Shown here: positions 9,652-47,652 of the stretch, piece by piece
Numbering within the stretch: position 1 is the first letter of the stretch
Layout: each line of letters starts with the position of its first letter
Assembly (NCBI GenBank): GCA_964363345.1
Contig: CAYIHY010000002.1
Location: forward strand, 761 to 64,760
Length of the DNA: 64,000 bases
Reading direction: 5' to 3'
Origin: Candidatus Woesearchaeota archaeon
Lineage (GTDB): Archaea > Nanobdellota > Nanobdellia > Pacearchaeales > GW2011-AR1
Position numbers and translations under genes: made by a program
Notes under the pieces: generated by a model
Told to the model about the DNA's origin: nothing
Databases searched by the model: none
What the model saw: the letters and a program-made list of their open reading frames with translations, nothing else

Positions 9652-10212
9652 ATGCCAAACGAAGAAATTGTTGGGGGATTAATGTCTGCAATTGAGAGAG
9701 GCGAATCTCTGAAAAAAGCAATGATGACTTTTTACAACGCAGGATATAAAAAAGAACAAATTGAAGAAGCTGCGCAATTTTTGAACCAAAACCCAACTGC
9801 GTCGCCAATTCAGATTTTACAATCTTCTGTTTTAGCAGAAAAACCAAAACAAAAAATGTTTGGAAAAATTTTTCAGCAAAAAAATCCGGAAACAAAACCA
9901 ACTCTTCCTCTTCAGGTTCCAACAAATAAAATTACTTCTCCAATTCCTCAGGCAGTAATTCCCGATATTTCAAAAGCTCCAAAACAAGTTTCACAACCTG
10001 CACAAATAATTTCTAATTATGGAGAAACACAAATCTCTCCAGTTCAACCAGCGACCATTCAGAAAGTTTCAAATTATGGGAATGAAGATATAAAAGACAG
10101 AGTTGCAATAATTATTCTTGTAGTTGTATTGGTGTTCTTAGTAGGAATTTTGGCCTCGGTTTTTTTATTCAAACAGGAGATTACAAATTTTTTAAGCGGT
10201 TTGTTTAGTTAA
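9652..10212 (+). CDS. Hypothetical tail-anchored membrane protein with an N-terminal AGY-x3-EQI helical module
   Basis: 186 aa. N-terminus ERGESLKKAMMTFYNAGYKKEQIEEAA, a P/Q-rich linker, and a single C-terminal TM (VAIIILVVVLVFLVGILASVFLF). Confidence 0.5.
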   Translation: MPNEEIVGGLMSAIERGESLKKAMMTFYNAGYKKEQIEEAAQFLNQNPTASPIQILQSSVLAEKPKQKMFGKIFQQKNPETKPTLPLQVPTNKITSPIPQAVIPDISKAPKQVSQPAQIISNYGETQISPVQPATIQKVSNYGNEDIKDRVAIIILVVVLVFLVGILASVFLFKQEITNFLSGLFS

Positions 10213-10213
10213 A

Positions 10214-10759
10214 ATGATTTATCAGCCTGCAGAAGATTCTTATTTGATGTCAAGAATTTTGAAAGAGCAAATTCCAAATTTGCTGAAAGAGAATCCCGAT
10301 TTATCTTTTCTTGAAATCGGCGCAGGAAGTGGAATTCATTTGGAAACCGCAAAAAGTTTGGGGATTAAAAAAGAAAACATTTTTTCTTCAGATATAGATA
10401 AAAAATCAGTTTCTCACTGCAATCTTTTGGAATTTAATTGCATTCATTCTGATTTGTTTGAAAATATTTCTGGAAAATATGATTTAATTATTTTTAATCC
10501 CCCTTATCTTCCTGAAGATGCCCGCGAGCCGAAAAGTTCAAAATTAGAAACGACTGGCGGAAAAAAGGGAAATGAAATAATATTAAGATTTTTGAAAGAC
10601 GCAAAAAATTATTTGAAAATTGGCGGAAAAATATTTCTCATAACTTCTTCTCTTGCCGAAGACATAAGTTTTAAAAAATTAGGCTACGAATCAAAAGAAA
10701 TTGGATGCGAAAAATTATTCTTCGAAAGATTGTGCATTTGGGAATTAATTATCTCTTAA
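10214..10759 (+). CDS. HemK/Mtq2-like SAM-dependent (glutamine/N6-adenine type) methyltransferase
   Basis: 181 aa. SAM motif I LEIGAGSG and catalytic motif IV NPPY (IIFNPPYLP). Size fits the archaeal Mtq2-like release-factor methylase family. Confidence 0.75.
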   Translation: MIYQPAEDSYLMSRILKEQIPNLLKENPDLSFLEIGAGSGIHLETAKSLGIKKENIFSSDIDKKSVSHCNLLEFNCIHSDLFENISGKYDLIIFNPPYLPEDAREPKSSKLETTGGKKGNEIILRFLKDAKNYLKIGGKIFLITSSLAEDISFKKLGYESKEIGCEKLFFERLCIWELIIS

Positions 10760-11585
10760 TATCTTTCCAGCCGATTTTCTTTTTCTTTAATCCTACAAGT
10801 TGCAGGAATTGATCTTCAAAAACAGGCTTTTCTTTTTGATAAAAAATTCCTAAAGGAATTTTTTTAACAATATTATAATCAAACTCATCAGCTTTTTTCC
10901 ATGCAGAATTAAAATTAGTCTTATCATGCCCCTCTTTCTGAAGTAAATAAAATTTACCCATATAATTTTTATCTTTGTGAAAAATTATTGACGGTTGAAT
11001 AATCTCTATAAACGCAAATCCTTTGTGTTTCAATGCTTCTTTGAAAACGGATTCAAGCTGTTCCTTCTCAGAAAAAACTCTTGCAACAAAACTCGCTCCA
11101 CTCGCAAGCATTATTTTTATCGGATTTATCGGATACAATTTCACCCCAAGAGGAGTTGTTTTATCTTTGAATCCAATTTCTGTAGTTGGTGTAGGCTGTC
11201 CTCCAGTCAACGCAAAAACCTGATTATTATGAATAAAATATTTGAAGTCAGAATTATATCTTGCAGCATGAATTAAATGTTCCATTCCTTCTGCATATGC
11301 ATCTCCATCTCCAGAAAATCCGATTACACTTAGATTTGGATTTCCAACTTTCATCCCAAGGCAAGTCGGTAAAACTCTCCCGTGGAGTGTGTTTATCCCG
11401 TTTAAATTTATATAATCAAAAATTTTTCCGTGGCATCCAATCCCCGCAACAATCGCAAAATTTTCTTTTTTCTTTCCTCTCTTAATCTCTTCTGCAATTA
11501 CTTTTTTCACACTTGCAAGTATTTGGAAATTAAAACATCCAGGACACCATGTCGGAATTACTGGGGTGTTAAGATTTTCTGTCAT
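10749..11585 (-). CDS. 2-oxoacid:ferredoxin oxidoreductase beta subunit (TPP-binding), copy A
   Basis: 278 aa. Contains WCPGCFNFQ, GIGCHGK and the TPP motif GFSGDGDAYAEGMEH. By eye, about three quarters identical to the 13677..14516 product. Confidence 0.85.
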   Translation of the reverse strand: MTENLNTPVIPTWCPGCFNFQILASVKKVIAEEIKRGKKKENFAIVAGIGCHGKIFDYINLNGINTLHGRVLPTCLGMKVGNPNLSVIGFSGDGDAYAEGMEHLIHAARYNSDFKYFIHNNQVFALTGGQPTPTTEIGFKDKTTPLGVKLYPINPIKIMLASGASFVARVFSEKEQLESVFKEALKHKGFAFIEIIQPSIIFHKDKNYMGKFYLLQKEGHDKTNFNSAWKKADEFDYNIVKKIPLGIFYQKEKPVFEDQFLQLVGLKKKKIGWKDIKR

Positions 11586-11586
11586 T

Positions 11587-12105
11587 TTATAACATCCTCC
11601 CTACAAGGTAAGTATCAACATATCTTCCATCGTCTGTTAAAAGTGCTTTTTTCTTTTCCCCTTCAATTTTAAAACCATTCTTTAATGCCAATTTCCATGA
11701 ACCCTTGTTTTCTATTGCCATTTCTGCCTCTGCTCTTTTGAAACCTTTTTTCTTAGCATATCTTAAAGATTCTTTAAGCAATTTTGTACCAATTCCTTTT
11801 CCTTGGTAATCTGGATGAATTCCCCACCCCATCCCGATTCTGTGCCTTAATCTCCCATTTTTTTTAAATGAAGACATCATTGAACCGACTATCTTTTTAT
11901 TTTTTTTATCTATTGCTATAAATGAAAAAGTATCTGGATTTTTATCTGCAAAATCCTTTCTCATTTTTTCTATCTTCTCCTTATCGGGAGCAAGATTGCT
12001 TCCAGTATATACCCAATTTTTAGTTTCAACACCTACCTTAGTCATCTCGGCAATTCCTTTTTCATCTCCAGATTTTGCTTTTCTAATTATTATTTCATTT
12101 GTCAT
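11587..12105 (-). CDS. GNAT family N-acetyltransferase
   Basis: 172 aa. Acetyl-CoA motif A YQGKGIGTKLLKESLRYAKKKGF. Inserted exactly at the alpha/beta junction of OFOR copy A. Confidence 0.8.
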   Translation of the reverse strand: MTNEIIIRKAKSGDEKGIAEMTKVGVETKNWVYTGSNLAPDKEKIEKMRKDFADKNPDTFSFIAIDKKNKKIVGSMMSSFKKNGRLRHRIGMGWGIHPDYQGKGIGTKLLKESLRYAKKKGFKRAEAEMAIENKGSWKLALKNGFKIEGEKKKALLTDDGRYVDTYLVGRML

Positions 12106-35681: not shown

Positions 35682-38225
35682 TTAAACTATTTTCTTCCCT
35701 GAATATTTCTTTAAAGCATAACCTACTTGCTCATAATTCCATCCTGCTTTCCTGAGTTTCGACGCAATTTCTCTCTCTTTAAGTCCTTTCTTTTTTTCAC
35801 CGTCGATATAATTAAGAAGATTGTAAAGATTATTTCTGTTCTTGAATAAATAATTTTCATATTTTCTTTTGTACCATAATTTTATCAGCACCCATACAAT
35901 TAACCACACAATAATGATAATTAATGCAATAATTACAAATATAATCCATTTATTCAATCCTTTTTGGAATGAGGGAACATTCCCATTTAATGACAAATCA
36001 CTTATCTTTGGAGAGATAAATAAAGGAAGAGTGATAAAATCAACATCGTCTGTTGTTGAAAAAATAATATGAGTTCCCTGGTCGCTTAACCGAGTATATT
36101 TATATCCATCTTCCTGAGTCAATGAGTAATCTTGATCAAGAAGCAAATTATTCATATCTTTAACTATAAGGTAAGGACTATTGCTGTCTTTTTTTGTAAT
36201 TGTCATATCAAATATTTTTAATAACGGAGTTTCATAATCTTCGTAGATTGCAGAAGTTTCTGAATAAGTTACCTTGGTGTCAAGATTTTCGTCACCCCAC
36301 ACAAGTATCGCATTCCTATACGCATCTTCGTTAGCAGTATCATAATTTTCTTGTGTAATCTGTGTTAACGAATTCAAATCAATATTCTCTTTTTGAGGAT
36401 AATAAATTAAATCGCTGCTTGATGCAGTTTTTATAAGTAATTTTGGAATGCTTACATTTAATATTTCGCCCAGCATAATTTCATAATCTGATTCGGTAGT
36501 TGTGTCAGAAATACTATCCTGCAAATCCAAAACCATTTTTTTGGAGTCGTCAAGTTTTAATAAATCATTGATGCTTTTTTGTTCAAAAGCAGAAAAGCCA
36601 AGAATCTGAATTTTTAAGTTATCAATATTGTCATTCATATCCTGCAAAAGGACAGGAACAATTTCAGAAGCAGGAGAAACTTTTACAATAAATGTTTTTG
36701 AAGAACTTCTATTCTGAGCATCAACTGCGCTTACAGTCAATTCATAATCTCCGATGGTGCGGTAAGCATAAACAACTTGTTTTGTTGTGGTTGTTGCATT
36801 ATTTCCATCGCCAAAACTCCAGTGATATAAACTTATATTTTTGGTTGAATTAATTCCAATAACAAATTTAGTCGGATAAGTAATCGCAGTTTTTAAGGGA
36901 GTTAAATATTGAATTATCGGTGCAGATTCAATTCTTATTCTTTCTGAAAATAATTTAATATCATCTAAGCTTAAAGAGTAAGTGTAATTTCCTAAACTAT
37001 TTGGAACTGAAAATCCCGCTTCATTTAAATTTAATTTTTGAAATGGAGAATTTATTTTTGCAGGCATTTCTGTAAAACCATAAAGATTTGTTTCTGTAGC
37101 CGATATTTCTGCAGTATAAGAAAATGACGGCTCAGTTAAATCTATTTTTTGATTCGCAATTCCCGAAATAAATTTTATTGGGATTACGCATCCCTTCGTG
37201 CAGTCATTTCCATATCTTACCGAGAGATAATCCTTTATTTCTTTAAGGATAATTGCATCATTAAAAGTGATTACTCCTATAGGGGCATATTTTTTTGTCT
37301 TTGCGAAAATATTAAAATCTTCACTATAACTTCCAGGATAAATTCCAGAAAACCCGCACGGATTATTTTGTTCATAAGCTATTTTATATTTTCTTGCATC
37401 TACAGCAGGATTTGTGGGTTTTATGCACACAAAATAATCTCCACCATTAACATAGAAGTTAGGAGGAACGCATCCAATTTCCCCTTCTCCAGAAGCCAGC
37501 ACAGAACATGTTTTCTTTAATACTCCGCTTGTATCTTCAATGCTCATTGTAAAGGGAATATCTGTTGCAGTTCCAATAACCTTCGCACGGATATTTACCG
37601 CAGGGGCTTCAGAAAGAGTTATTTTTTCGCAATAAGGTATAGATGCAAGATCTGCCAAAGAATTTGAATCCGAATCGAAATAACATCCATATTGAACATC
37701 ATTGAAATTTTCTGAGGGAATATTTGATTTCCATTCTATATTTCCATCGCTTAAAAAATCAACAGTCAAAGGAAGAGTGGATGTCTCAGCGTTATCGCCT
37801 GTTAATTTAAGAGAAAAAGAGTCTACACTTACTACTGATTTTGTAGAAGTTATTTTAAATCCAAAAATTGATGATTCCCCCGCATTTAAAACTACACTCT
37901 TTGATAGTTCTCCTGTTCCAATCGCCGAATAATCTGAACTGCAATCAAGAGGACTGCAAGTGTAACTGAATTCTGAATTTGAATTTTTGCTTATCAAATC
38001 AATTAAACTTATTTTTTTCTCTAAACTTTCAACAGAACTTTTAAAAATTGCATTTGTCGGCTCATTATTCAAGCTTATATTCACCCATCCCGTTATCACT
38101 CCACTTGGCGCATATATTTTATCAATTGAATGATTTAAGTTCCCATTTGTAAAACTAGCAGAAATAAAATTCAAGAAAAAAATTATCGCAATTAAACAAA
38201 TAATTTTTTTAAATACATTCACCAT
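35682..38225 (-). CDS. Large surface protein with a PKD domain, a C-terminal TM and a cytoplasmic AGW-x3-EQV tail
   Basis: 847 aa. N-terminal signal/anchor IICLIAIIFFLNFISA, PKD-like WSFGDGNNATTTTKQVVYAYRTIGDYELTVSAVDAQNRS, TM WIIFVIIALIIIIVWLIVWVLI, and tail KKGLKEREIASKLRKAGWNYEQVGYALKK. Confidence 0.7.
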   Translation of the reverse strand: MVNVFKKIICLIAIIFFLNFISASFTNGNLNHSIDKIYAPSGVITGWVNISLNNEPTNAIFKSSVESLEKKISLIDLISKNSNSEFSYTCSPLDCSSDYSAIGTGELSKSVVLNAGESSIFGFKITSTKSVVSVDSFSLKLTGDNAETSTLPLTVDFLSDGNIEWKSNIPSENFNDVQYGCYFDSDSNSLADLASIPYCEKITLSEAPAVNIRAKVIGTATDIPFTMSIEDTSGVLKKTCSVLASGEGEIGCVPPNFYVNGGDYFVCIKPTNPAVDARKYKIAYEQNNPCGFSGIYPGSYSEDFNIFAKTKKYAPIGVITFNDAIILKEIKDYLSVRYGNDCTKGCVIPIKFISGIANQKIDLTEPSFSYTAEISATETNLYGFTEMPAKINSPFQKLNLNEAGFSVPNSLGNYTYSLSLDDIKLFSERIRIESAPIIQYLTPLKTAITYPTKFVIGINSTKNISLYHWSFGDGNNATTTTKQVVYAYRTIGDYELTVSAVDAQNRSSSKTFIVKVSPASEIVPVLLQDMNDNIDNLKIQILGFSAFEQKSINDLLKLDDSKKMVLDLQDSISDTTTESDYEIMLGEILNVSIPKLLIKTASSSDLIYYPQKENIDLNSLTQITQENYDTANEDAYRNAILVWGDENLDTKVTYSETSAIYEDYETPLLKIFDMTITKKDSNSPYLIVKDMNNLLLDQDYSLTQEDGYKYTRLSDQGTHIIFSTTDDVDFITLPLFISPKISDLSLNGNVPSFQKGLNKWIIFVIIALIIIIVWLIVWVLIKLWYKRKYENYLFKNRNNLYNLLNYIDGEKKKGLKEREIASKLRKAGWNYEQVGYALKKYSGKKIV

Positions 38226-38282: not shown

Positions 38283-38382
38283 TTTTTTGCTTACGATATT
38301 TGATGTAAAAAGAGTTAGAAAAATATTTTCTGTTTTTTGCTTACGATATTTTATCTAAAAGGAGTTAGAAAAAAATTTCCTA
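38283..38382. repeat. Tandem direct repeat, 2 x 50 bp, between the two large surface-protein genes
   Basis: Unit 1 (38283..38332) is ttttttgcttacgatatttgatgtaaaaagagttagaaaaatattttctg. Unit 2 (38333..38382) is ttttttgcttacgatattttatctaaaaggagttagaaaaaaatttccta. The first 19 nt are identical and a handful of mismatches follow. Confidence 0.85.
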
Positions 38383-41007
38383 TTTTTTTCTTAATATCTT
38401 TTTTTTGAAAATTAATCCGACGTAAATTAATGCAATTATAACAACTGAACCAATCATCCCAAGATAATCAAAGAAAGGAAGCTGAACTTGTGCAGGGCAT
38501 AAAGCAGTTATTGGTTTATCTGCTAAATGAATACACCAATCATATATTTTTCCTTTTTTTGTCGAGTCTGCCCCAGTCCATGTTCCAGTTGCAACTATTG
38601 TTTGATATCCTACTGGCTCAACATCACAATTTTTTGTAATTGATTGACTAATTTTGCATAAACCGAAAGTTAGAGGTCCTACGGAATTATAACATTTTTC
38701 GGAACGGCAAAATAAATTTCTTGAACAAGAATCTAAATCTCCGTCTTTGCAATCTGCAGATGAACATCCCTCCCCTAAATCACATTTTCCGTCATTATTT
38801 GATAGCGATTCGTCTCCAGTTGGACAAACATTTCCAAAATAACAGTAATTTCTTGAAGGCGAAGAACCTGCCTTGTGACATAATGTATAACCATAACTAC
38901 AGGTTGGGTCTACTATCGGAAGAATTGAAGAATAGCAAGTTCCAGCAGAACAAAGAAGTCCGCTCGTGCAAGTATCTTGTTTGCCTTCACAATCTGCGCA
39001 GGTACATCCCTCTTCACCAAATTCACAAACTCCATCATTGTTGCAATGAGATGATGTTCCACAATCTTTTGTTCCAACAACTGCTCCACAAACTTCTCCT
39101 GCACTATTATAAGTTAAATCTGTTGTGCCACTGCAAATAGACGATGCGGGAGGTAATGTTGGACAAACTGCGGTACATGTTTTTGTTCCAAGAACAGTTC
39201 TGCAAACCACTCCCGTACTAGTATCTAAAATATTAAATTGATCTGTACCACTGCAAACTTCATCATTTGTGGGATGAGTTGGACATCCTCCAGTTCCACA
39301 ATCTTTTGTTCCAACAACTGCTCCACAAACTTCTCCTGCACTATTATAAGTTAAATCTGTTGTGCCACTGCAAATAGACGATGCGGGAGGTAATGTTGGA
39401 CAAACTGCGGTACATGTTTTTGTTCCAAGAACAGTTCTGCAGACTACTCCGGTACTAGTATCTAAAATATCAAATTGAGCCGTACCGCTGCAAACTTCAT
39501 CATTTGTGGGATGAGTTGGACATCCTCCAGCCCCTGGACAAGTATTTCCGGGATAACAATAACTTGCTCCGCTTGTATCAAAACATAAAGTATAACCATT
39601 TCCACATCCATTAGTTGAACCGGTACATTGTGTTGTATCAAATGAACAACGTGAGTCACAACTTAATGTTCCGCCTGTAAAGACGCTATTAACATCATGG
39701 CATGTTTTTCCGCTAAGGGCTGTTCCATCACAAACTTCTCCAGTATTTATAGTTCCATCTCCGCAACTTCCGGTTGTTCCTCCTGTGCAGGCAAAAGTAT
39801 CCCATTTGCATGGATTTGAAGAAGTAGGAGAGCCACAATTTAAAGTTCCTCCTGTAAAACTATCAAAGTTACTGCAAGTTTTTCCGTCTAATCCCAAAGT
39901 AGGTTCACAATCTTCTCCGGCACTTACGATTTCATCACTGCAGGTAGGAGTAAAAGGATTAATCGGTCCAGAAGTAAATCCGCATGTGCTAGTAGTTGTA
40001 TCCCAAGCACATGCACAATTAGTATCTGAAGCAGTGCAATCAACTCCGACGCTAGTTCCCTGCTCTACAAGATTAACCGAACAAGGAGTATTTGTATTAC
40101 ATTGATTTGCATCTTTATACTTGTCACAAGTTACTATTCCCGCACAATCTGCATCTGAAGGTTTTTTAACTAATAATAAAGGATTTTCACTTGTTTTTGT
40201 TTTAGTTGTGTCAGAAACTAATGTTGCAGTAAAAGAATATGATGGATCAGCAGTTCCAAAAATTCCAGTTCCCTGCCATTCAGTTGTCCATTCCCCTTTC
40301 GCAGTGTCATCACTAAATGGAACATTTACCGGATTTGTCGTCGCAGATGGAGAAGTTGTAAATGAAACACTTTTTCCTCCGCATTCCGAACCACTTCCTT
40401 TAACTACAAGAAATGCTTTTTGTCCAGTTAATGCGCTGTCAGAAGAGCTAACAGGATTAATCCCATCTAAACTCCAAAATGCTCTATCAAGAGTACACGG
40501 ATAAGTTAATGTTCCAGAACAGCATATTTTTGTTGAGTAATCCGCGAATGCTCCAATGTGCGCGTTTGTAGTAGCAGATAGGGAAAGAACTCCGATGTTA
40601 TTTGTTGGGCAAGTGGTAGTAGAATAAGCACAACTTAAATCTCCATAACAAACATTATTTGTTGCAGAATAAATATTAGACAAAGGTTCTTCAGCATGGG
40701 CATTTATCGAAGATGAAAGTCCAATAATTTTATTTGCTCCATTACAATCAGTAACTCCATCTCCAAAACCACAGCATAAAACAGAATCATATACTGGAGT
40801 TTGTTTATTTAATTGTCCATGAGCGTTTGTCGGTGCAGAAAGCCCCATTATTACATATCCGTTTGTTATATCATTAGTGCAGTCTGCCCTTGTAGAGATG
40901 ATACATGTTCCTGCTGAAGGCACCGCAGCAAAAATTCCAGAAATTAAAAAAGAAAATATAATTAGCGCAAAAAATAATTTACCTATCACTTCTTTTTTCA
41001 TCTTCAT
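38380..41007 (-). CDS. Very large Cys/Thr/Gly-rich surface protein with a C-terminal TM anchor
   Basis: 875 aa. N-terminal signal LFFALIIFSFLISGIFAA, cysteines spread along the whole length, three LS-x-x-(T/I)-NAH modules, an internal 79-aa exact-type duplication, and a C-terminal TM plus KKKILRKK. Confidence 0.7.
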   Translation of the reverse strand: MKMKKEVIGKLFFALIIFSFLISGIFAAVPSAGTCIISTRADCTNDITNGYVIMGLSAPTNAHGQLNKQTPVYDSVLCCGFGDGVTDCNGANKIIGLSSSINAHAEEPLSNIYSATNNVCYGDLSCAYSTTTCPTNNIGVLSLSATTNAHIGAFADYSTKICCSGTLTYPCTLDRAFWSLDGINPVSSSDSALTGQKAFLVVKGSGSECGGKSVSFTTSPSATTNPVNVPFSDDTAKGEWTTEWQGTGIFGTADPSYSFTATLVSDTTKTKTSENPLLLVKKPSDADCAGIVTCDKYKDANQCNTNTPCSVNLVEQGTSVGVDCTASDTNCACAWDTTTSTCGFTSGPINPFTPTCSDEIVSAGEDCEPTLGLDGKTCSNFDSFTGGTLNCGSPTSSNPCKWDTFACTGGTTGSCGDGTINTGEVCDGTALSGKTCHDVNSVFTGGTLSCDSRCSFDTTQCTGSTNGCGNGYTLCFDTSGASYCYPGNTCPGAGGCPTHPTNDEVCSGTAQFDILDTSTGVVCRTVLGTKTCTAVCPTLPPASSICSGTTDLTYNSAGEVCGAVVGTKDCGTGGCPTHPTNDEVCSGTDQFNILDTSTGVVCRTVLGTKTCTAVCPTLPPASSICSGTTDLTYNSAGEVCGAVVGTKDCGTSSHCNNDGVCEFGEEGCTCADCEGKQDTCTSGLLCSAGTCYSSILPIVDPTCSYGYTLCHKAGSSPSRNYCYFGNVCPTGDESLSNNDGKCDLGEGCSSADCKDGDLDSCSRNLFCRSEKCYNSVGPLTFGLCKISQSITKNCDVEPVGYQTIVATGTWTGADSTKKGKIYDWCIHLADKPITALCPAQVQLPFFDYLGMIGSVVIIALIYVGLIFKKKILRKK
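39057..39530. repeat. Near-perfect in-frame tandem duplication, 2 x 237 bp, inside the Cys-rich surface protein gene
   Basis: Unit 1 (39057..39293) and unit 2 (39294..39530) differ at only about seven positions by eye. Each encodes GGCPTHPTNDEVCSGT(A/D)QF(D/N)ILDTSTGVVCRTVLGTKTCTAVCPTLPPASSICSGTTDLTYNSAGEVCGAVVGTKDCGT. Confidence 0.9.
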
Positions 41008-41140: not shown

Positions 41141-41560
41141 TTATTTTTTGATATGCCTAAGAACTAAGTCAGAGAATTCTTTAATTATCTTTATCTCTTT
41201 TATTATTTTAAAAATATCTTCTGTTTTGATTGCTCCATATCTGTGGGCAAGTTTATTTCGGGAAATAATCAAATCTTTTAATTTTGTTTCCATTGCTTTA
41301 TTTATTATTTTTTTGTTCAATAGCAGGACAAATATTTCTTTTATCTCTGTTGGATATCCCAAATGCTCCTCTTTTACAACCTCGTCGCCCAAATCAATGA
41401 TTCTATTTATAGCGGAAAAAATAAGCATAGAACTCGCATAAAAATTAAGGTCATTTTTCAAATCTTCTTGAGACTTTATTTTCATATTTTCCAATTTTTT
41501 AAGATACATTTCTATATCTTCAATAATAATCATTATTTTCTCCTTGTCATGCATTTTCAA
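41141..41560 (-). CDS. HEPN domain toxin (DUF86-like) of an MNT-HEPN pair
   Basis: 139 aa. Rx4H motif RNKLAHRYG near the C-terminus. Its start overlaps the upstream NTase gene by 14 nt. Confidence 0.75.
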   Translation of the reverse strand: MKMHDKEKIMIIIEDIEMYLKKLENMKIKSQEDLKNDLNFYASSMLIFSAINRIIDLGDEVVKEEHLGYPTEIKEIFVLLLNKKIINKAMETKLKDLIISRNKLAHRYGAIKTEDIFKIIKEIKIIKEFSDLVLRHIKK

Positions 41561-41924
41561 ATTTCTCCGTCATTCTATTTTTCATAAAAAACATAAATTC
41601 TCGGTATTCTTTTAGCGTATTTGATTTAATCTCTTCTATTTTATTTTTATTCCTAACAAACAATTCTTTTCCATCTTTGAAAACCCGGACTTTGATAAAA
41701 ATAGGCAATTCTTCAAAAAAAGAGATATCAAATTTTTCAGGACTATCCCTTAAGATTTTCTTTTTTTCATTTTCATTCAATTTTCCAATAATGCAGATAT
41801 CTATATCAGAAAGATTTCCAAAATTTTTTAGATAACTCCCAAATAAAAAAATTGAATAAACTTTTTTGTTTTTTGATAAATCTTTAACAATCTTTTTTAT
41901 CGGTTGTTCATATTTACGATCCAT
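41547..41924 (-). CDS. Minimal nucleotidyltransferase (MNT) antitoxin of an MNT-HEPN pair
   Basis: 125 aa. Pol-beta-type motif LFGSYLKNFGNLSDIDICII. Confidence 0.75.
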   Translation of the reverse strand: MDRKYEQPIKKIVKDLSKNKKVYSIFLFGSYLKNFGNLSDIDICIIGKLNENEKKKILRDSPEKFDISFFEELPIFIKVRVFKDGKELFVRNKNKIEEIKSNTLKEYREFMFFMKNRMTEKFENA

Positions 41925-42064
41925 TTTATTATAAATCTTGTTAGATTATTAAATTTATTCTTTTTTAACAAAGCCATTTAATCTCTTCAGGGAATTTATT
42001 TTCTTCCTTTTCCGCAAAAAACATTTTAAAAAATAAAAAAGGCTCTTTTAAATAGCCAATAAAA

Positions 42065-42400
42065 TTAATTTTCTGACTTTTGTTTATAAACATCTCTAAA
42101 CCATTCTTTGGGTGGATTTTTTTCTTCTAATATCAAAGAATTAAGTATATCTTGAGAAAATTCTTTTGACGATTTTGGCAAATGGCTTATTTCGATAGGG
42201 ATATCCCATCCAATATCTTCCAAAAAATTAATTGCTATTTGCATATTTTCCGAGATAAATTTGTCAGAGCTACCATAGTCTTCAAATACTTTTCTCGCCT
42301 CTGTCTTTACATCTTCCCCCTCAAGTATACGTTCATAAAGATCAATAAGATATTCTCTTAATTCTTGGATATCTAATCTAATTCCCATTTTCCTCTTCAT
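42065..42400 (-). CDS. Hypothetical acidic protein (111 aa), third gene of the unassigned cassette
   Basis: ORF only. Overlaps the upstream ORF by 23 nt (11 nt if Met5 is used). Confidence 0.45.
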   Translation of the reverse strand: MKRKMGIRLDIQELREYLIDLYERILEGEDVKTEARKVFEDYGSSDKFISENMQIAINFLEDIGWDIPIEISHLPKSSKEFSQDILNSLILEEKNPPKEWFRDVYKQKSEN

Positions 42401-42788
42401 CTGATTTATGATTTAGAATATTATTTAACATTCTTTTCCTAGCAGTCTCAAGCAAGTCCATTGCATCATACGCGGATTTTCCTCCATCTGCCATTGCAGC
42501 ATCATAACTTGAAATAAGAATTTTTCTCCTTGAATAATCCATTAAACTACTTGGTTTTGTAGTTTCTCCTTCATGTATATGTAGCTGAAAACCAGAAGCG
42601 GGAAAATCTCTTATCGTCAAATCTGTAGAAGGCTGGATTTTTATTTCGGGGATTAATCCATAACTATCTCGACCAATTAAACTCTTAAAATCTTCTTCTA
42701 ATGGTCTACTTCCAAAGCTATACATAACACTTGCGCTAAGATTTTCTAAATCTCCAGAACTAAAATAAATTTGTTCTTCTAATCTCAT
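42378..42788 (-). CDS. Hypothetical protein (136 aa), second gene of the unassigned cassette
   Basis: ORF only. Starts 1 nt after the stop of the 379-aa ORF. Confidence 0.45.
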   Translation of the reverse strand: MRLEEQIYFSSGDLENLSASVMYSFGSRPLEEDFKSLIGRDSYGLIPEIKIQPSTDLTIRDFPASGFQLHIHEGETTKPSSLMDYSRRKILISSYDAAMADGGKSAYDAMDLLETARKRMLNNILNHKSDEEENGN

Positions 42789-42789
42789 T

Positions 42790-43929
42790 CTATTCTAAAC
42801 CCCCTTTCATTTTTATACTTCCACTTTGTGAATATAATAATTCTTCTTTGGAGAGCAGTCTTTTATTTTGTTTTAAAGCGATAGCATTTTTCAAATAAGT
42901 TAAAGAATAAATTAATCCGTGAATATTCCTTCTTGAATTTTCTTCAAATTGCATAGCCCGCCTCTTTTGCTCTTCTGATTTTTCAATATTGTATCTGACT
43001 GCTTCTTCAGTAATTCTTTGAGTTTGTAATTGTTCTTTAATCCTCTCAAAATAATTTTTATCTCCTAATATAAATTCTGAATTAGTCACTAATCCAGTTA
43101 TAGAAACATCAAACATCTTAATCATTTTTTCAAAATAATCTTCTCTTTCAACTCTTACATCCAGCCATGAACAATCGGTTTCAGGTAGATTATCCGAAAC
43201 AACAAACATATCAATATCTGAAAATTCTTTTCGTGAACCATAAAGAATAACTAATTTTGCTTCTTTTAATCTTTCACCATAAATGTCATTTAACAATCTC
43301 TTTGCTCTTTCCAGAGCGGTTCTTCTTGCTAATCCAAAATTATAAAATGTTGCTAAATCTCCATAGGTTTTATTAAATGAAATAAGTTCATCAATTGAAT
43401 TTTTCCTTTCTTGATTCACAGAATCATATTTTTTTTCAAATAAATTCTTCAAATTAAATTCTTTAGAAAGAAAATATTCTGTCCAAACAGCAAATCCTTC
43501 ATATAATCCGAGATTTTCTTTTTGTAACTCCCTTAATCTTAAAAAGACTTCATTTCCTTCTCTAAATTCGTTAATTTCTTCGGAAATAAATTGTTTATCT
43601 TTGAAATATTCTTTTTCTTTTTCCAATAAACTTTTTTCTAAACCAACCAATTCTCTTCCAGCTAAATTGTGTTCACAATAAAGTCCATGTCCAAAATACT
43701 CATGAAATAGGCTTAATCTGTTTCCTGCAGGAATAATTGCAGTTTGATTTCGAGGTAAATAAATTCCAGAAGAATTTTTATCAAAATCAAATCCTTTGCA
43801 AAAAGAAGTCCATTGTTTTGGATTTAATTGTTTTAATTCCGTTTTTTCCGTAGAATAACCCAATAATTCCTTATAACTTTTATTAGCTTGAATAACTAAT
43901 TCTTGAATACCAGAAGGTTCTTCGTCCAT
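42790..43929 (-). CDS. Fusion protein: N-terminal zincin-like domain (HEYFGH ... YEGFAVW) plus a C-terminal minimal-nucleotidyltransferase-like domain
   Basis: 379 aa. LFHEYFGHGLY (HExxxH spacing) and, ~65 aa downstream, LGLYEGFAVWTEYF resemble the gluzincin His/His/Glu arrangement. VILYGSRKEFSDIDMFVVSD resembles the GS...DxD NTase motif. A helical C-terminus follows. Confidence 0.5.
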   Translation of the reverse strand: MDEEPSGIQELVIQANKSYKELLGYSTEKTELKQLNPKQWTSFCKGFDFDKNSSGIYLPRNQTAIIPAGNRLSLFHEYFGHGLYCEHNLAGRELVGLEKSLLEKEKEYFKDKQFISEEINEFREGNEVFLRLRELQKENLGLYEGFAVWTEYFLSKEFNLKNLFEKKYDSVNQERKNSIDELISFNKTYGDLATFYNFGLARRTALERAKRLLNDIYGERLKEAKLVILYGSRKEFSDIDMFVVSDNLPETDCSWLDVRVEREDYFEKMIKMFDVSITGLVTNSEFILGDKNYFERIKEQLQTQRITEEAVRYNIEKSEEQKRRAMQFEENSRRNIHGLIYSLTYLKNAIALKQNKRLLSKEELLYSQSGSIKMKGGLE

Positions 43930-43984
43930 ATAAATTTTATTCGAGTAAACTATTTAAACTTTATGTTTTGTTACTATTGTATAA

Positions 43985-45667
43985 TTAATTCATCCAATTC
44001 ATTCCTAAAATATCATCTAATTTTTCTCTCGGCAAATATGTATTTTCATAAATAATTTTACCTGCTTTTTCATCAGCAACTCCTGGATTTACAATATCCC
44101 ATGCGGGAATCATAATTGTTTTATCTGTTGATAAAGTTGCTAATATTTTTGCTTCTCCATTAGGTGCAATAAATACATGTCCAAATTCATGAGGCCCCAC
44201 GGGATCATTATAAACCGCATGTTCTGGTCGTATTTCAATAATGCTTCGATTAATAATCCCACTTGCAGAAGTTCCATTTAAATAAAAATTTGTTGTTTTA
44301 CCCGCGATGGCATTTCCGTACATGTCCTTAACATTTGAATTTGGAACTTCAATTACCCATCCTTCATCAGGAATAATAAATCCGTTAGCAATAGTATAAT
44401 GTTTTACTAAAGAATCATCTATGACATTTTGAAATGCTTCTCCCCCGATAAATTTCCTTATGCCTGTGGGAGAAGTAAATTCATCTATCAAATAACCTAT
44501 TTTAGCATTATCAAAAGAATCTGCTGAATTATTTGTTAATGGATTTTGTTTTAAAATCTGAACGTTTTTAGTAATTGACTTTTTTAATCCATCTTTATTA
44601 GGGAAATATCCCTGTCCGAAATTTATTTCCCCCATAGAATTTTTAAAATCTGTTGCATCAAAAAAAGAACCATCAGAATATCCATATCTACTAACTCTAA
44701 TTTTATTTGTTAAATCCTGATCTTTTGTTCCGTCGAGAGTTAATGTTCTTATGTAACTTGTTTCTGCTCCGCCAACTTTGTTAAATCGAGCTTGCAATTT
44801 TACTTGTGCAACTGGAGAACTCGCATGAAAACTAAAATTTCCGTCACTTGAATTTATGTCTGATAAAAGAGTTGTTCCATCGTAAATTCTAACTTCTCCT
44901 GCTGAATTTGTCAAGGTTTCAACATCTTGTAAATTTCCAGTTATATCTAATAAATTTTTTTCTGTTAAGGTATAATTTTGTTTTGTTGTATTTGTTCCAT
45001 CAGAGACATCTATTCCAACATCCTCATTTGTGTCTGCACTTATTGCGGGAGGTGACCCAGAAACTAACCAAGTTGAAGAATTTATTTGGTTTGCAGATAA
45101 CCAGGAAGGTTTTACTAAACATGTTAAATTGTCTCCTTCTGGATAATTAACTGTTACTTGATAATTATAAGAATTTCCTTCCTCAACTGTTAATATCGGA
45201 GACGAAGTTATTACCGGAGCATAATTTACTGGCGGATTTATAACGTCATCCAAAGCAACAATTTCTAATCTCGCTGTTCCTTTTAAACTCAAATCCAAAT
45301 TATCTGTGCCTTGTGCGATGAAGCTATATGTTCCAGCTTTAGTTGGAGTCCAAGAGTAATTTTTTATAGGAGAATCTTGTTTTATTAGTTCTAAATCTCC
45401 TGCATCAATTATCCCATTGCTATTATTATCTAATGCAATTAAGTGATTTGCAATTCCATTTTCGTCTGTTCCGTCTGCATTTAGGTAAATCGAGGTTCCA
45501 ACTTTAGTTGAAGATTGAGAAGAGCTGATGCTCTCTTTTGGAGCATAATTTGTTGTAGTAATAATCGGCTCGCAACCAAAAAAAACAAGGGAGGCTAAAG
45601 CTAATATTCCCGCCTTTACTCTTTTTATCTTGCTTTTTAATATATTATTTTCTAGTGTTTTAACCAT
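43985..45667 (-). CDS. Secreted, probably lipid-anchored protein with cadherin/Ig-like repeats and a C-terminal HExxH zinc-protease motif
   Basis: 560 aa. Lipobox-like signal ALASLVFFGC, Ig-like YAPVITSSPILTVEEGNSYNYQVTV, and C-terminal VGPHEFGHVF. Confidence 0.6.
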   Translation of the reverse strand: MVKTLENNILKSKIKRVKAGILALASLVFFGCEPIITTTNYAPKESISSSQSSTKVGTSIYLNADGTDENGIANHLIALDNNSNGIIDAGDLELIKQDSPIKNYSWTPTKAGTYSFIAQGTDNLDLSLKGTARLEIVALDDVINPPVNYAPVITSSPILTVEEGNSYNYQVTVNYPEGDNLTCLVKPSWLSANQINSSTWLVSGSPPAISADTNEDVGIDVSDGTNTTKQNYTLTEKNLLDITGNLQDVETLTNSAGEVRIYDGTTLLSDINSSDGNFSFHASSPVAQVKLQARFNKVGGAETSYIRTLTLDGTKDQDLTNKIRVSRYGYSDGSFFDATDFKNSMGEINFGQGYFPNKDGLKKSITKNVQILKQNPLTNNSADSFDNAKIGYLIDEFTSPTGIRKFIGGEAFQNVIDDSLVKHYTIANGFIIPDEGWVIEVPNSNVKDMYGNAIAGKTTNFYLNGTSASGIINRSIIEIRPEHAVYNDPVGPHEFGHVFIAPNGEAKILATLSTDKTIMIPAWDIVNPGVADEKAGKIIYENTYLPREKLDDILGMNWMN

Positions 45668-45727: not shown

Positions 45728-45991
45728 TTAATTTTTATAGACCTCATCATGATGCTTATACTTTTCAATTATTATCGTTTTTGTATTTTCATTTATAGAA
45801 TAAACCAGAACATAATTCCCTATGTGAACCCTCCAAAAATTTTGGAGAGGTTTTTTTAAAGGTTTAAAATGATACGGGTTTTCTCTTATCTCGGCTATTT
45901 TTTTTGAAATATAATCAAAAGAAATCTTATCTTTTTTGGATAATCTGCGGAATATCCTGTCCACACCTTCTTTTATTTCAAGATTATACAT
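45728..45991 (-). CDS. RelE/ParE superfamily toxin
   Basis: 87 aa. The pattern ...ENPYHFKPLKKPLQNFWRVHIGNYVLVYSINENTKTIIIEKYKHHDEVY is typical of RelE/YafQ-like toxins. Confidence 0.7.
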   Translation of the reverse strand: MYNLEIKEGVDRIFRRLSKKDKISFDYISKKIAEIRENPYHFKPLKKPLQNFWRVHIGNYVLVYSINENTKTIIIEKYKHHDEVYKN

Positions 45992-45998
45992 ATTTCCC

Positions 45999-46226
45999 CT
46001 ATTTATAATGTTCAGAAAAATTTTTGATTTTTATTGTTTTCTCTTTTTGAGATTCTAAAAGTTCTTTGATAAAATCCGGCTTTAATTCTGGCTCAAGCAT
46101 TTCTTTGCCAAAAATATTCAGAATCAAGTTAAGTGCGTCGCTTTTATCATTTAAATTTTCTTTAGCTTTGACAATATTCAAGATCCGATTCGCATTATCC
46201 TCAATATCTACAATTGCTTTAACCAT
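45999..46226 (-). CDS. Putative antitoxin partner of the RelE-like toxin
   Basis: 75 aa. Lies 7 nt upstream of the toxin gene on the same strand. Assigned by position only. Confidence 0.5.
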   Translation of the reverse strand: MVKAIVDIEDNANRILNIVKAKENLNDKSDALNLILNIFGKEMLEPELKPDFIKELLESQKEKTIKIKNFSEHYK

Positions 46227-46272: not shown

Positions 46273-47652
46273 TCATCCCTTCACAACAGCCAGAGGTTTT
46301 AATCTTGCAACCTTTTTGCTTATTCCCAAATCATCAACAACTTTCACAACCTCGTCGATATCCTTGTAAGCTTCAGGCGCTTCTTCAGCCAGGGACTTCC
46401 AGCTTCCTGCTTTGACTTCAATACCTTCTTTATTCATTTCTTTTTTAGTTTCCTCTCCCTTTAGATTTCTCAGAGCTAAACTTCTTGAAGAAATTCTCCC
46501 TGCTCCGTGGACTGTTGAACCGAATGTCAGCTCCTCTGCCTTTTTTGTCCCAATTAGCAAATACGACGCTGTTCCCATGCTTCCAGGAATAATTACGGGT
46601 TGTTTATTAAAAGCCCTCGTCGCGCCTTTTCTGTGGACGCACACAATTTTATTTTTCCCGCCTATTTTATGTTCTTCAAATTTCGCAATATTGTGACAAA
46701 CATCATAGACAACATCTATTTTCACTTTTGGAAAAAGTTTCCCCATTTCTTCCCTAATCCAGTGAGTAATTATTTGTTTATTTGCAAATGCAAAATTTGC
46801 AGCAGCGCACATTGCAGAATAATAATCTTTTCCTAGTTTGCTTTTTATCGGTGCATTGATTAATTCTCTATCTGGTAAATTTTTGAAACCATATTCTTTT
46901 TCCATCAACTGAATATAATCACTTGCAACCTGATGTCCGAGCCCCCTGCTTCCGCAGTGAATCATTATTGTTACCTGTCCTTTTTTTATTCCAAGTTTTT
47001 TTGCAATTTTATCGTCGAAGATTTCATCAACATACTGAACTTCTAAAAAATGATTTCCCGCACCGATTGTCCCAAGTTGCCCAATTCCCCTGTTAACTGC
47101 TCTTTCAGAAACTTTGTCTGAATCAGCGTCTTTCATATTTCCTTCTTCTTCGGTGTGTAGATAATCTTCTTTAACTCCCATTTTTAAATTATCCACCACA
47201 TATTTTGCCCCGCCCTCAAGTAATTTATTCAATTCTTTTCTTGTAATTTGAAATTTGCTTCCTCTACCGACTCCAGATGGAATTTTTTCGTACAATTTTT
47301 CAACAACTTCTTTTTGTTTTTTTAAAATATCTTCTTTTTTCAAATTTGTTTTCAGCAGTCTTACAGAACAATTAATATCATAGCCGACTCCGCCTGGAGA
47401 AATTACTCCCCGGTCTAAATCAAAAGCCGCAACTCCGCCGATAGAAAATCCGTAACCTTGGTGCGCATCAGGAAGCGCGATTGAATATTTTAAAATTCCG
47501 GGAAGATGCGCAACATTTTTTACTTGTTCCAGCGTTTTATCTTTTTCTATATTTTTAAGAATGCTTTCGCTGGCAAAAATCCGTGCAGGAACTTTCATTC
47601 CGTTTTCGGCAGGAATTTCATAAACATCTTTTGAAACCTTTTTTAATTCCAT
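46273..47652 (-). CDS. rtcB: RNA-splicing ligase RtcB
   Basis: 459 aa. Contains GGVGYDINCSVRLL, GAGNHFLEVQ, HCGSRGLGHQV and HGAGR. Confidence 0.9.
   Translation of the reverse strand: MELKKVSKDVYEIPAENGMKVPARIFASESILKNIEKDKTLEQVKNVAHLPGILKYSIALPDAHQGYGFSIGGVAAFDLDRGVISPGGVGYDINCSVRLLKTNLKKEDILKKQKEVVEKLYEKIPSGVGRGSKFQITRKELNKLLEGGAKYVVDNLKMGVKEDYLHTEEEGNMKDADSDKVSERAVNRGIGQLGTIGAGNHFLEVQYVDEIFDDKIAKKLGIKKGQVTIMIHCGSRGLGHQVASDYIQLMEKEYGFKNLPDRELINAPIKSKLGKDYYSAMCAAANFAFANKQIITHWIREEMGKLFPKVKIDVVYDVCHNIAKFEEHKIGGKNKIVCVHRKGATRAFNKQPVIIPGSMGTASYLLIGTKKAEELTFGSTVHGAGRISSRSLALRNLKGEETKKEMNKEGIEVKAGSWKSLAEEAPEAYKDIDEVVKVVDDLGISKKVARLKPLAVVKG

Follow-up and report, generated by a model that had tools for sequence, protein, structure and literature searches.

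A group of three adjacent genes, designated here A, B and C, was analysed on the minus strand of a 64,000-nucleotide (nt) stretch of contig CAYIHY010000002.1 from the Candidatus Woesearchaeota archaeon assembly GCA_964363345.1; the whole of this stretch (G+C ~32%) is referred to as the window, and all coordinates refer to it. Comparison with related loci demonstrated that the triad consists of a constant enzyme gene (A), a constant leader at the N-terminus of B that co-evolves with A, and an exchangeable cassette made up of the variable C-terminal tail of B plus the partner protein encoded by C. It is considered somewhat probable that the triad belongs, as one locus, to a polymorphic cassette system which is lineage-wide in DPANN archaea, and in which the product of A would act on the leader and that of C on the tail. 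All of the sequences compared were from metagenome-assembled genomes or metagenome assemblies, and gene calls in the related loci (denoted by L numbers) were chains of open reading frames (ORFs) made in the course of this analysis.

The leader was recognised by extracting the genes that follow A from 62 genomic loci encoding relatives of A. The gene adjoining A carried the leader in 45 of 65 loci, 56 leader-bearing proteins being recovered, and leader-bearing loci from Pacearchaeota, Woesearchaeota and Nanoarchaeota totalled ~90. Extending over 25–40 residues, the leader conformed to the consensus M(Q)LEQ...(V/T)Y.VVGDLE(S/N)LSASALY(S/T)G, and was followed first by a Gly/Ser/Pro-rich linker and then by unrelated C-terminal domains, the cores of 55–180 residues having the appearance of folded domains. 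When 98 of these proteins were aligned, invariant or nearly invariant columns (L3, E4, L14, E15, L17, S18, A19, L22 and Y23) were located exclusively in the leader, the overall column identity of this alignment being 14%. The leader matched no Pfam family, and a scan of the window with a hidden Markov model of the leader recovered gene B only, with no orphan cassette or second copy.

Tail types were defined by clustering the last 60 residues of 106 leader proteins drawn from the first survey and from metagenome loci, since the shared Gly-rich linkers chain unrelated tails together at a permissive threshold. The 13 tail clusters and 11 partner clusters thereby distinguished, the exact numbers of which shift with the clustering thresholds, were paired on a nearly one-to-one basis: tail type T0, that of the window, was accompanied by P0, the family of the window C, in 34/34 cases, T2 by P3 in 10/10, T3 by P2 in 8/8, and T4 and T5 by P1 in 14/14. 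The adjusted mutual information between tail and partner, calculated on the first 53 pairs, was 0.73, compared with a maximum of 0.19 in 5000 shuffles (p ≤ 2e-4). Gene B is not a fixed small partner but a single allele of a gene that is polymorphic, each C-terminal domain having its own gene in the C slot; the earlier guess of an immunity-like small partner, made in a preliminary description of this DNA, fits these pairing data.

The tail of the window B, termed the HIHE tail, belongs to a cluster in which P63 is invariant, T58, S65, H70, I71, H72, E73, S94, A97 and A98 are nearly invariant, and the helix start (S/N)SYDAAMAD is conserved. Conserved His/Asp/Glu motifs were evident in tails both here (HIHE) and elsewhere (DHLNYE...N.HI). 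In the AlphaFold2 model of B, four short strands and a long helix were predicted, with values of the predicted local distance difference test (pLDDT) of 73–90 in the C-terminal third. Neither B nor its HIHE tail gave a match in Pfam, among PDB sequences or with Foldseek, and C, which is probably helical and has 25 homologues with 57–87% identity, matched no family or structure in Pfam, NCBIfam, PADLOC or the PDB. Two partner types, P5 and P9, contain winged-helix domains (e.g. L025 1840..2124 and L039 1762..1956; TFIIE_alpha 3e-5, HTH_45 2e-9) and, like many antitoxins, could double as DNA-binding regulators. Tails and partners were without transmembrane segments or signal peptides, save for one partner marginally over the usual hydropathy threshold, and their median isoelectric points (pI) were 7.9 and 5.8, respectively.

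The organisation of multiple cassettes, and the positions at which DNA homology is lost, indicated how this diversity is distributed. Two or three tandem cassettes follow a single A in many loci, including L010, L023, L029, L039, L050, L067, L069, L086 and L088. Within such arrays the leaders were 65–100% identical (88–100% in 10 of 15 pairs), and the tails were 23–37% identical in 11 of the 15 pairs, which is about the between-locus average of 28% for tails; higher values within an array (to 62%, in L050) corresponded to cassettes with a common linker sequence or tail type. Between the window and L072, 81% DNA identity was maintained from 44245 to 42714, an interval that takes in gene A and reaches 25 codons into B, after which no homology was detectable until 41044, at the next conserved gene (85% identity). 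Homology with L069 broke down at 42717, as in L072, and the second leader copy of L069 is accompanied by ~30 nt of the 3' end of A (90% identity), a repeat of the sort on which recombination could draw. L007, the A of which is 52% identical to that of the window, has the same tail and partner type: here the two sequences were unaligned over 42718..42626, and homology resumed inside the linker to continue through the core of B and C.

Across the survey, the nearest neighbour by A identity possessed the same first tail type in six of 41 loci (15%), against 19% expected by chance, and A identity was correlated with leader identity (rho 0.37, p 1e-27) as opposed to tail identity (rho 0.05). Tail type is independent of the phylogeny of A, and tail and partner move together as a swappable cassette, the recombination break falling where the leader ends.

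The association of leader with A was confirmed in the reciprocal direction by scanning 241 million metagenome records with the single pattern DLE[SNG]LSASA. Of 48 confirmed loci, all 42 with enough upstream sequence had A directly upstream on the same strand, the other six having no more than ~400 nt upstream. The association also outlasts a change of gene order, B-C-A being recorded in L048, L063 and L066, members of clades in which A is only 27–43% identical to that of the window; in L058 and L064, of equivalent divergence, only a B-like gene was detected upstream of A. At two further loci the N-terminal domain of A occurred as a stand-alone protein: in L123 (4001..5463) a 208-residue protein lacking the nucleotidyltransferase (NTase) half precedes a tail of type T2 and a partner of type P3, and in L124 (2011..6010) a T4/T5-like tail lies upstream of a 209-residue equivalent. 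As the cassette link persists with a stand-alone N-terminal domain devoid of NTase, these loci point to that domain as the part which works with the leader. Downstream of the N-domain gene of L124 lies a ClpX-like AAA+ ATPase (Pfam AAA, AAA_2), and a protease-like domain with an unfoldase beside it hints that processing may depend on ATP. A 399-residue protein next to the stand-alone N-domain of L124 was compared with the missing NTase half, and the alignment was not significant (hhalign E 0.026, probability 2%).

The triad is kept as a unit in relatives, and no other gene family was conserved near A, the next-best cluster being present in 11 of the 62 loci. Four contigs carry bacterial labels (L029, L042, L052 and L062; Candidatus Paceibacteria, Gammaproteobacteria, Patescibacteria and 'bacterium'), probably as a result of binning contamination or of mislabelling of DPANN contigs. 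A mobile-element or viral origin for A was also considered and rejected, no match having been obtained in IMG/VR or in phage or plasmid collections.

Numbers of homologues (238 for A at E ≤ 1e-3, 28 for B and 26 for C) exclude chance ORFs. The best 120 of the 238 A homologues, from metagenome-assembled genomes of Pacearchaeota, Woesearchaeota and Nanoarchaeota, were 46–69% identical and mostly full length at ~370–400 residues. Several assemblies have two A loci (L031/L067, L039/L054 and L053/L060), and the contig of L037 that has an intact A bears a further copy (9952..11652), disrupted into ORFs of 96 and 280 residues, with a B/C cassette of its own. The AlphaFold2 model of A (pLDDT 90.7; predicted template modelling score 0.84) consisted of two domains, and hydropathy analysis revealed no transmembrane segment. 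Model and alignments both bore out the architecture proposed in the preliminary description, namely an N-terminal HExxxH...E domain fused to a Pol-beta/MNT-type NTase with a helical C-terminus, and the motifs quoted in it were all located: LFHEYFGHGLY at residues 74–84, LYEGFAVWTEYF at 142–153 and VILYGSRKEFSDIDMFVVSD at 227–246. Catalytic-looking residues of both halves are retained across the family rather than lost in homologues, H76, E77, G80, H81, G82, E86, E144, E151, G231, S232, D238, D240 and D257 being invariant or present in at least 90% of a 65-sequence alignment. Searches of A, B and C against Pfam, NCBIfam and PADLOC confirmed that no curated family covers the architecture.

Of the two halves, the N-terminal domain proved the more isolated. 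An exhaustive HMMER profile search against 1.84e9 representative proteins recovered only 229 clusters, nearly all with the architecture of A or corresponding to stand-alone proteins of ~205 residues. Relatives with 24–40% identity, the stand-alone proteins included, shared an invariant set (W40, H76, E77, G80, H81, G82, G91, E144, F146, A147 and W149) that spells the motifs HExxGHG and YEGFAxW. The order of secondary structure in the model, a β-sheet, the HE..H helix and a later helix bearing the Glu, fits a zincin core. In M1 gluzincins HExxH-x18-E is found with xNEGFA, and in the M49 dipeptidyl peptidase III the motif is HExxGH. The domain resembles M49 in its HExxGH, and M1 and other MA(E) families in the position of the EGFA Glu on a later helix, but differs from these gluzincins in that 62 residues, with two inserted helices, separate the His motif from E144.

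No match to the domain was obtained in Pfam, NCBIfam or PDB sequences, two profiles included; distant members gave no Pfam domain besides a weak Polbeta; and the best Foldseek matches were M9 collagenases (E 0.16, probability 0.3). The term zincin-like, as used in the preliminary description, holds at the level of motif and not of placement in a peptidase family, and because the fold search yields only these low-probability collagenase matches the domain is described as a putative metallopeptidase on the strength of its motifs. Matches to mitofusin, PGL-1, SRP54 and UPF2 in the PDB, given by sequence or profile searches with A, the N-domain, B or C, were set aside as chance. Two unusual relatives were recorded: P0266 has HCYFGHG, with the catalytic Glu substituted, and P0307 (566 residues) has the N-domain joined to a long Cys-rich C-terminal region in place of the NTase.

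By way of contrast, the C-terminal half could be assigned to a superfamily. It satisfies the Pol-beta signature hG[GS]...[DE]h[DE]h plus third carboxylate on an NTase fold, with S232, D238 and D257 invariant and G231 and D240 in at least 90% of sequences; Pfam Polbeta matched 44 of 65 A members, every one of them below the gathering score. The best PDB match by Foldseek was Hailong HalB (9dbj/9dbh; E 5e-5, probability 1.0, target-normalised TM-score 0.48 over 156 aligned columns, with 14–15% sequence identity), a probability of 1.0 also being returned for 3c18, an uncharacterised NTase-like protein. GlnE and DrrA were among the weak fold matches, and the best viral matches were NTases of ~220 residues (E 6.5e-5, probability 1.0). 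Alignment by hhalign with the MntA encoded nearby in the window was confined to the GS..DxD segment (36 columns), and A gave no match to NCBIfam MntA; in PADLOC, it shared with MntA a weak match to PDC-S09. The possibility that the helical C-terminus of A is a HEPN domain was rejected: since nothing aligned with HepT and no Rx4-6H was conserved, the C-terminal helices being without any conserved Arg or His, this part is not a HEPN RNase.

The three minus-strand ORFs of 379, 136 and 111 residues were confirmed at the positions originally given, with one refinement. All 25 homologues of C begin at the equivalent of Met5 of the window protein (MGTRLD), and GAGGA sits just 5' of the corresponding ATG at 42388, so this is the most likely start of C. 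The 1-nt gap between A and B stands as first described, while the 23-nt overlap between B and C applies only to the longest C ORF, and is reduced to 11 nt by the likely start. Similarly, the acidity attributed to one of the two small proteins was confirmed, but not its restriction to one, as both B (pI 4.8) and C (pI 4.5–4.8) are acidic. The TATA-like element 5' of A is a candidate promoter of the archaeal type for a leaderless or short-leader A-B-C transcript, and the T runs 3' of C likely mark an archaeal-type terminus; with these elements at either end, A-B-C looks like a single archaeal transcription unit.

Features of the A-B-C locus and of the adjacent MntA/HepT pair (window coordinates; aa, amino acids)
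Feature	Coordinates	Strand	Description
Gene A	42790..43929	-	379 aa; cytoplasmic two-domain enzyme; constant component
A, N-terminal domain (aa 1-203)	43321..43929	-	orphan alpha/beta domain, zincin-like by motif
HEYFGHG (aa 76-82)	43684..43704	-	within the N-terminal domain of A
YEGFAVW (aa 143-149)	43483..43503	-	within the N-terminal domain of A
A, C-terminal half (aa 204-379)	42793..43320	-	Pol-beta-fold nucleotidyltransferase plus helical bundle; G231-S232, D238, D240, D257
Gene B	42378..42788	-	136 aa; leader plus variable tail protein
B, leader (aa 1-23), MRLEEQIYFSSGDLENLSASVMY	42720..42788	-	short form of the consensus; N-terminal tag common to second-slot proteins
B, variable part	42378..42719	-	low-complexity linker (aa 24-56), HIHE tail domain, C-terminal helix
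HIHE tail domain (aa 57-101), LTIRDFPASGFQLHIHEG...ISSYDAAMAD	42486..42620	-	tail cluster T0, 37 members
Gene C	42065..42388	-	107 aa from Met5; longest ORF 42400..42065, 111 aa; cognate partner of the HIHE tail
TATA-box-like element TTTAAATA	43951..43958	-	read from the sequence; ends 22 nt upstream of the ATG of A; putative promoter
Runs of T after gene C	42016..42040	-	read from the sequence; likely terminus
MntA	41547..41924	-	Pfam Polbeta 9.7e-12; NCBIfam MntA 43 bits, below the 60-bit cut-off
HepT	41141..41560	-	Pfam HepT-like 3.9e-16; NCBIfam HepT 64.2 bits against a cut-off of 60

According to the mechanism proposed, A would dock on the leader of B, whereupon its metallopeptidase-like domain would cut near the leader/linker junction, where LSAxxLY meets (S/T)G, and/or its NTase would place one or more nucleotides on the invariant Tyr or Ser of LSAxxLY. 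Such processing would control when the effector tail is active or released, and C would either bind and neutralise its cognate tail, as an immunity protein or antitoxin, or serve as its chaperone. MntA adenylylates a Tyr of HepT, and GlnE and DrrA likewise adenylylate Tyr. Nucleotidylation of Tyr is proposed for A because MntA and HalB, the two closest NTases, act on this residue; for HalB, PMC13434031 describes the priming of oligo-dA on the hydroxyl of its own Tyr. The role served would most likely be inter-cell or host-symbiont conflict, or abortive defence.

The closest precedent for such an arrangement is provided by the bacterial polymorphic toxin-immunity systems (CDI/Rhs/LXG; Zhang et al. 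2012, PMC3482391). In both, a constant N-terminus is combined with many unrelated C-termini; a cognate small gene, for which an immunity role is suggested here by analogy, lies directly downstream and co-varies with the C-terminal domain; tandem alternative cassettes break at a conserved junction motif, here LSASALY; and the distribution of tails departs from the phylogeny of the constant part. Differences are equally apparent. The constant part here amounts to only 25–40 residues and corresponds to no known trafficking domain; the loci have neither a secretion system nor a signal peptide, and lack both repeat filaments and autoproteolytic domains; none of the tails or partners is a member of the known Tox and Imm families; the conserved anchor is a separate zincin-like/NTase enzyme, and extra cassettes keep full leaders, unlike classical orphan cassettes. 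Classical polymorphic toxin systems are, moreover, reported to be rare in archaea (PMC3482391), and the hosts here are DPANN archaea. The loci are polymorphic effector/partner cassettes in which the leader and the dedicated enzyme are new, as are all the effector and partner families, and no description of the A family or of the A-leader-cassette architecture was found in the searchable literature.

Several observations weigh against a leader-directed conflict system of this kind. No Pfam toxin or immunity family was detected in the 98 leader proteins or in 10 representative tails and 10 representative partners, the two winged-helix partner types being the only ones to match Pfam at all; since no tail or partner matches such a family, the toxicity of the tails is suggested by the architecture of the loci. 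The spacing of the His motif in the N-domain is HExxxH (HEYFGH) rather than HExxH, and the domain may bind metal or peptide without cleavage. The model of B was poor (overall pLDDT 60), no secretion, transport or membrane gene was conserved near A in the 62 loci, and A, being highly conserved, mostly single per assembly and, among close relatives, syntenic with RtcB, resembles housekeeping genes more closely than typical defence genes. The data, furthermore, derive in their entirety from metagenome-assembled genomes.

The most probable of the alternatives, though still judged unlikely, is an intracellular toxin-antitoxin or abortive-infection module of the kind put forward in the preliminary description, with B as the toxin, A as an enzymatic (type VII-like) antitoxin or infection-sensing protease, and C as a second antitoxin, perhaps in concert with MntA/HepT. 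The tight coupling of the genes, the absence of any sign of export, the alignment of the NTase of A with MntA over GS..DxD together with their weak PDC-S09 matches, and the presence close by of other toxin-antitoxin pairs, MntA/HepT and ParE/DUF2683, are all consistent with this explanation. The adjacent pair is indeed a genuine MntA/HepT module by Pfam and NCBIfam, as the preliminary description had recognised. It occupies, however, a ~1-kb insertion that separates C from the next conserved gene, is missing from the syntenic loci L007, L069 and L072 (in L007 the next conserved gene begins no more than ~50 nt after C), and comes after a T-rich stop region, with an AT-rich region of its own upstream. 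A functional link between the triad and this pair was consequently not upheld, and MntA/HepT is a lineage-specific toxin-antitoxin insertion, located between the cassette and the gene of a large secreted protein and incidental to the triad.

The comparison with type VII modules is limited in other respects. A shares with MntA a minimal Pol-beta NTase of the form GS...DxD...D, from which the idea of control by Tyr nucleotidylation was taken, but is of three times the size and has two further domains, a metal-site domain at the N-terminus and a helical one at the C-terminus; it reaches no MntA model, its partner genes are polymorphic, and no HEPN toxin is present, neither a HEPN domain nor Rx4-6H being found in B, C or the C-terminus of A. 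HalB (PDB 9dbh/9dbj; Tan et al. 2025 via PMC13434031) also combines an NTase with a helical domain and is a protein-priming enzyme that begins synthesis on a Tyr hydroxyl, but has no N-terminal domain, and the Hailong effector HalA is a membrane channel, whereas no membrane protein is linked to the loci here; PADLOC returned no Hailong match for A, B or C. The triad is neither an MntA/HepT nor a Hailong system. Unlike typical mobile toxin-antitoxin modules, A is not found on phage, plasmid or viral contigs and is inherited with stable local synteny, and arrays of alternative toxin tails behind one leader are not normal for such systems. In its anatomy the triad is closer to polymorphic toxin-immunity loci than to toxin-antitoxin or abortive-infection systems.

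A maturation pathway in the style of bacteriocins or of ribosomally synthesised and post-translationally modified peptides (RiPPs), with B proteins as exported precursors, A as leader peptidase and modifier, and C as producer immunity, is judged quite unlikely. Prochlorosins (ProcM) and double-glycine-leader bacteriocins, the leaders of the latter being removed by a dedicated peptidase, provide a real likeness, in that one enzyme serves several precursors with near-identical leaders and divergent C-termini, and a small-residue motif closes the leader ahead of the variable part, this motif in the present case being the LSxxxLY(S/T)G of a short conserved leader. The partners, moreover, are small, mostly acidic and soluble, and the peptidase-like domain keeps the cassette link by itself in L123 and L124. 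Against this must be set the domain-sized cores, which are not short Cys/Ser/Thr-rich peptides, and the dedicated partner possessed by every core, unlike the arrangement in RiPP precursor arrays. Some partners are of the winged-helix type (HTH_45 2e-9), more typical of antitoxins or regulators, and neither LanM or YcaO machinery nor an ABC transporter, C39 peptidase (C39-ABC) or other exporter was conserved nearby. An enzyme combining a zincin-like domain with a Pol-beta NTase is not known to be used in RiPP pathways.

The remaining alternative, a housekeeping enzyme acting on RNA, tRNA or protein (perhaps in relation to RtcB) with B and C as exchangeable specificity or regulatory subunits docking via the leader, is very improbable: the conservation and mostly single occurrence of A, the location of RtcB within a few kb of A in the window, L001, L005, L069 and L072, and the placing of a DPANN-specific 'MNT fused to HEPN' cluster (cls.004259; NEQ050) in a 'house-keeping context' (Makarova et al. 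2019, PMC6393860) are in its favour, but RtcB co-occurs in only six of the 62 loci, so its proximity reflects synteny in one lineage, each tail needs its own partner, and unrelated tails swap between close relatives regardless of the phylogeny of A, which is the signature of conflict-driven diversification rather than of a stable holoenzyme.

With the polymorphic cassette system retained as the favoured reading, its interest lies in the hosts. DPANN lineages account for a large share of the diversity of archaea, many are found living on other cells, and most of what their genomes contain is 'dark matter'; next to nothing is known of their conflicts with competitors, hosts and viruses, for which the present locus is a widespread and experimentally tractable candidate. 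The candidate set comprises a single conserved enzyme, a short tag that is portable, and 13 or more effector families, all of them unknown, together with their matched partners. If the proposed mechanism is true, leader-directed nucleotidylation and proteolysis would join the ways in which polymorphic effectors are controlled, a set of new folds of small proteins, probably with toxic or neutralising activity, would be made available, and A plus the LSASALY leader would serve as a genomic marker for such cassettes in metagenomes. A further-reaching proposal, which is tentative and doubtful as it stands, is that these loci constitute a new class of archaeal conflict or host-interaction system, in which a bifunctional metallopeptidase and protein-nucleotidylating NTase would license exchangeable leader-tagged effectors, with effector and partner folds that would all be new and with no known secretion system, as a DPANN counterpart of bacterial polymorphic toxins that would have evolved independently.

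The surroundings of the triad in the window contain a number of other features. Just upstream of A, a 560-residue protein (43985..45667, minus strand) combines a hydrophobic segment at the N-terminal end with a C-terminal motif, HEFGH; He_PIG domains are present in its orthologues (L069, L072 and L001), and it adjoins A in close relatives only (six of 62 loci). Beyond it, a ParE-family toxin (Pfam 2.4e-9) and a DUF2683 protein (7.4e-9) make up a second toxin-antitoxin pair (45728..46226, minus strand), which separates RtcB from the He_PIG-like gene. In L069 these two genes adjoin directly, the He_PIG gene coming after RtcB, so the ParE/DUF2683 pair looks like an insertion. The RtcB of the window (46273..47652; 459 residues) is without an intein, and its orthologue in L001 (1..308), the Pacearchaeote RBG_19FT_COMBO_34_9, is a 966-residue protein with one (Pfam Intein_splicing). 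On the other side of the triad, a predicted Cys-rich surface protein of 875 residues (38380..41007, minus strand) contains an ~80-residue block, GGCPTHPTNDEVCSGT.QF.ILDTSTGVVCRTVLGTKTCTAVCPTLPPASSICSGTTDLTYNSAGEVCGAVVGTKDCGT, twice, as an internal duplication, and next to its gene is that of a large surface protein of 847 residues (35682..38225) with a C-terminal transmembrane anchor.

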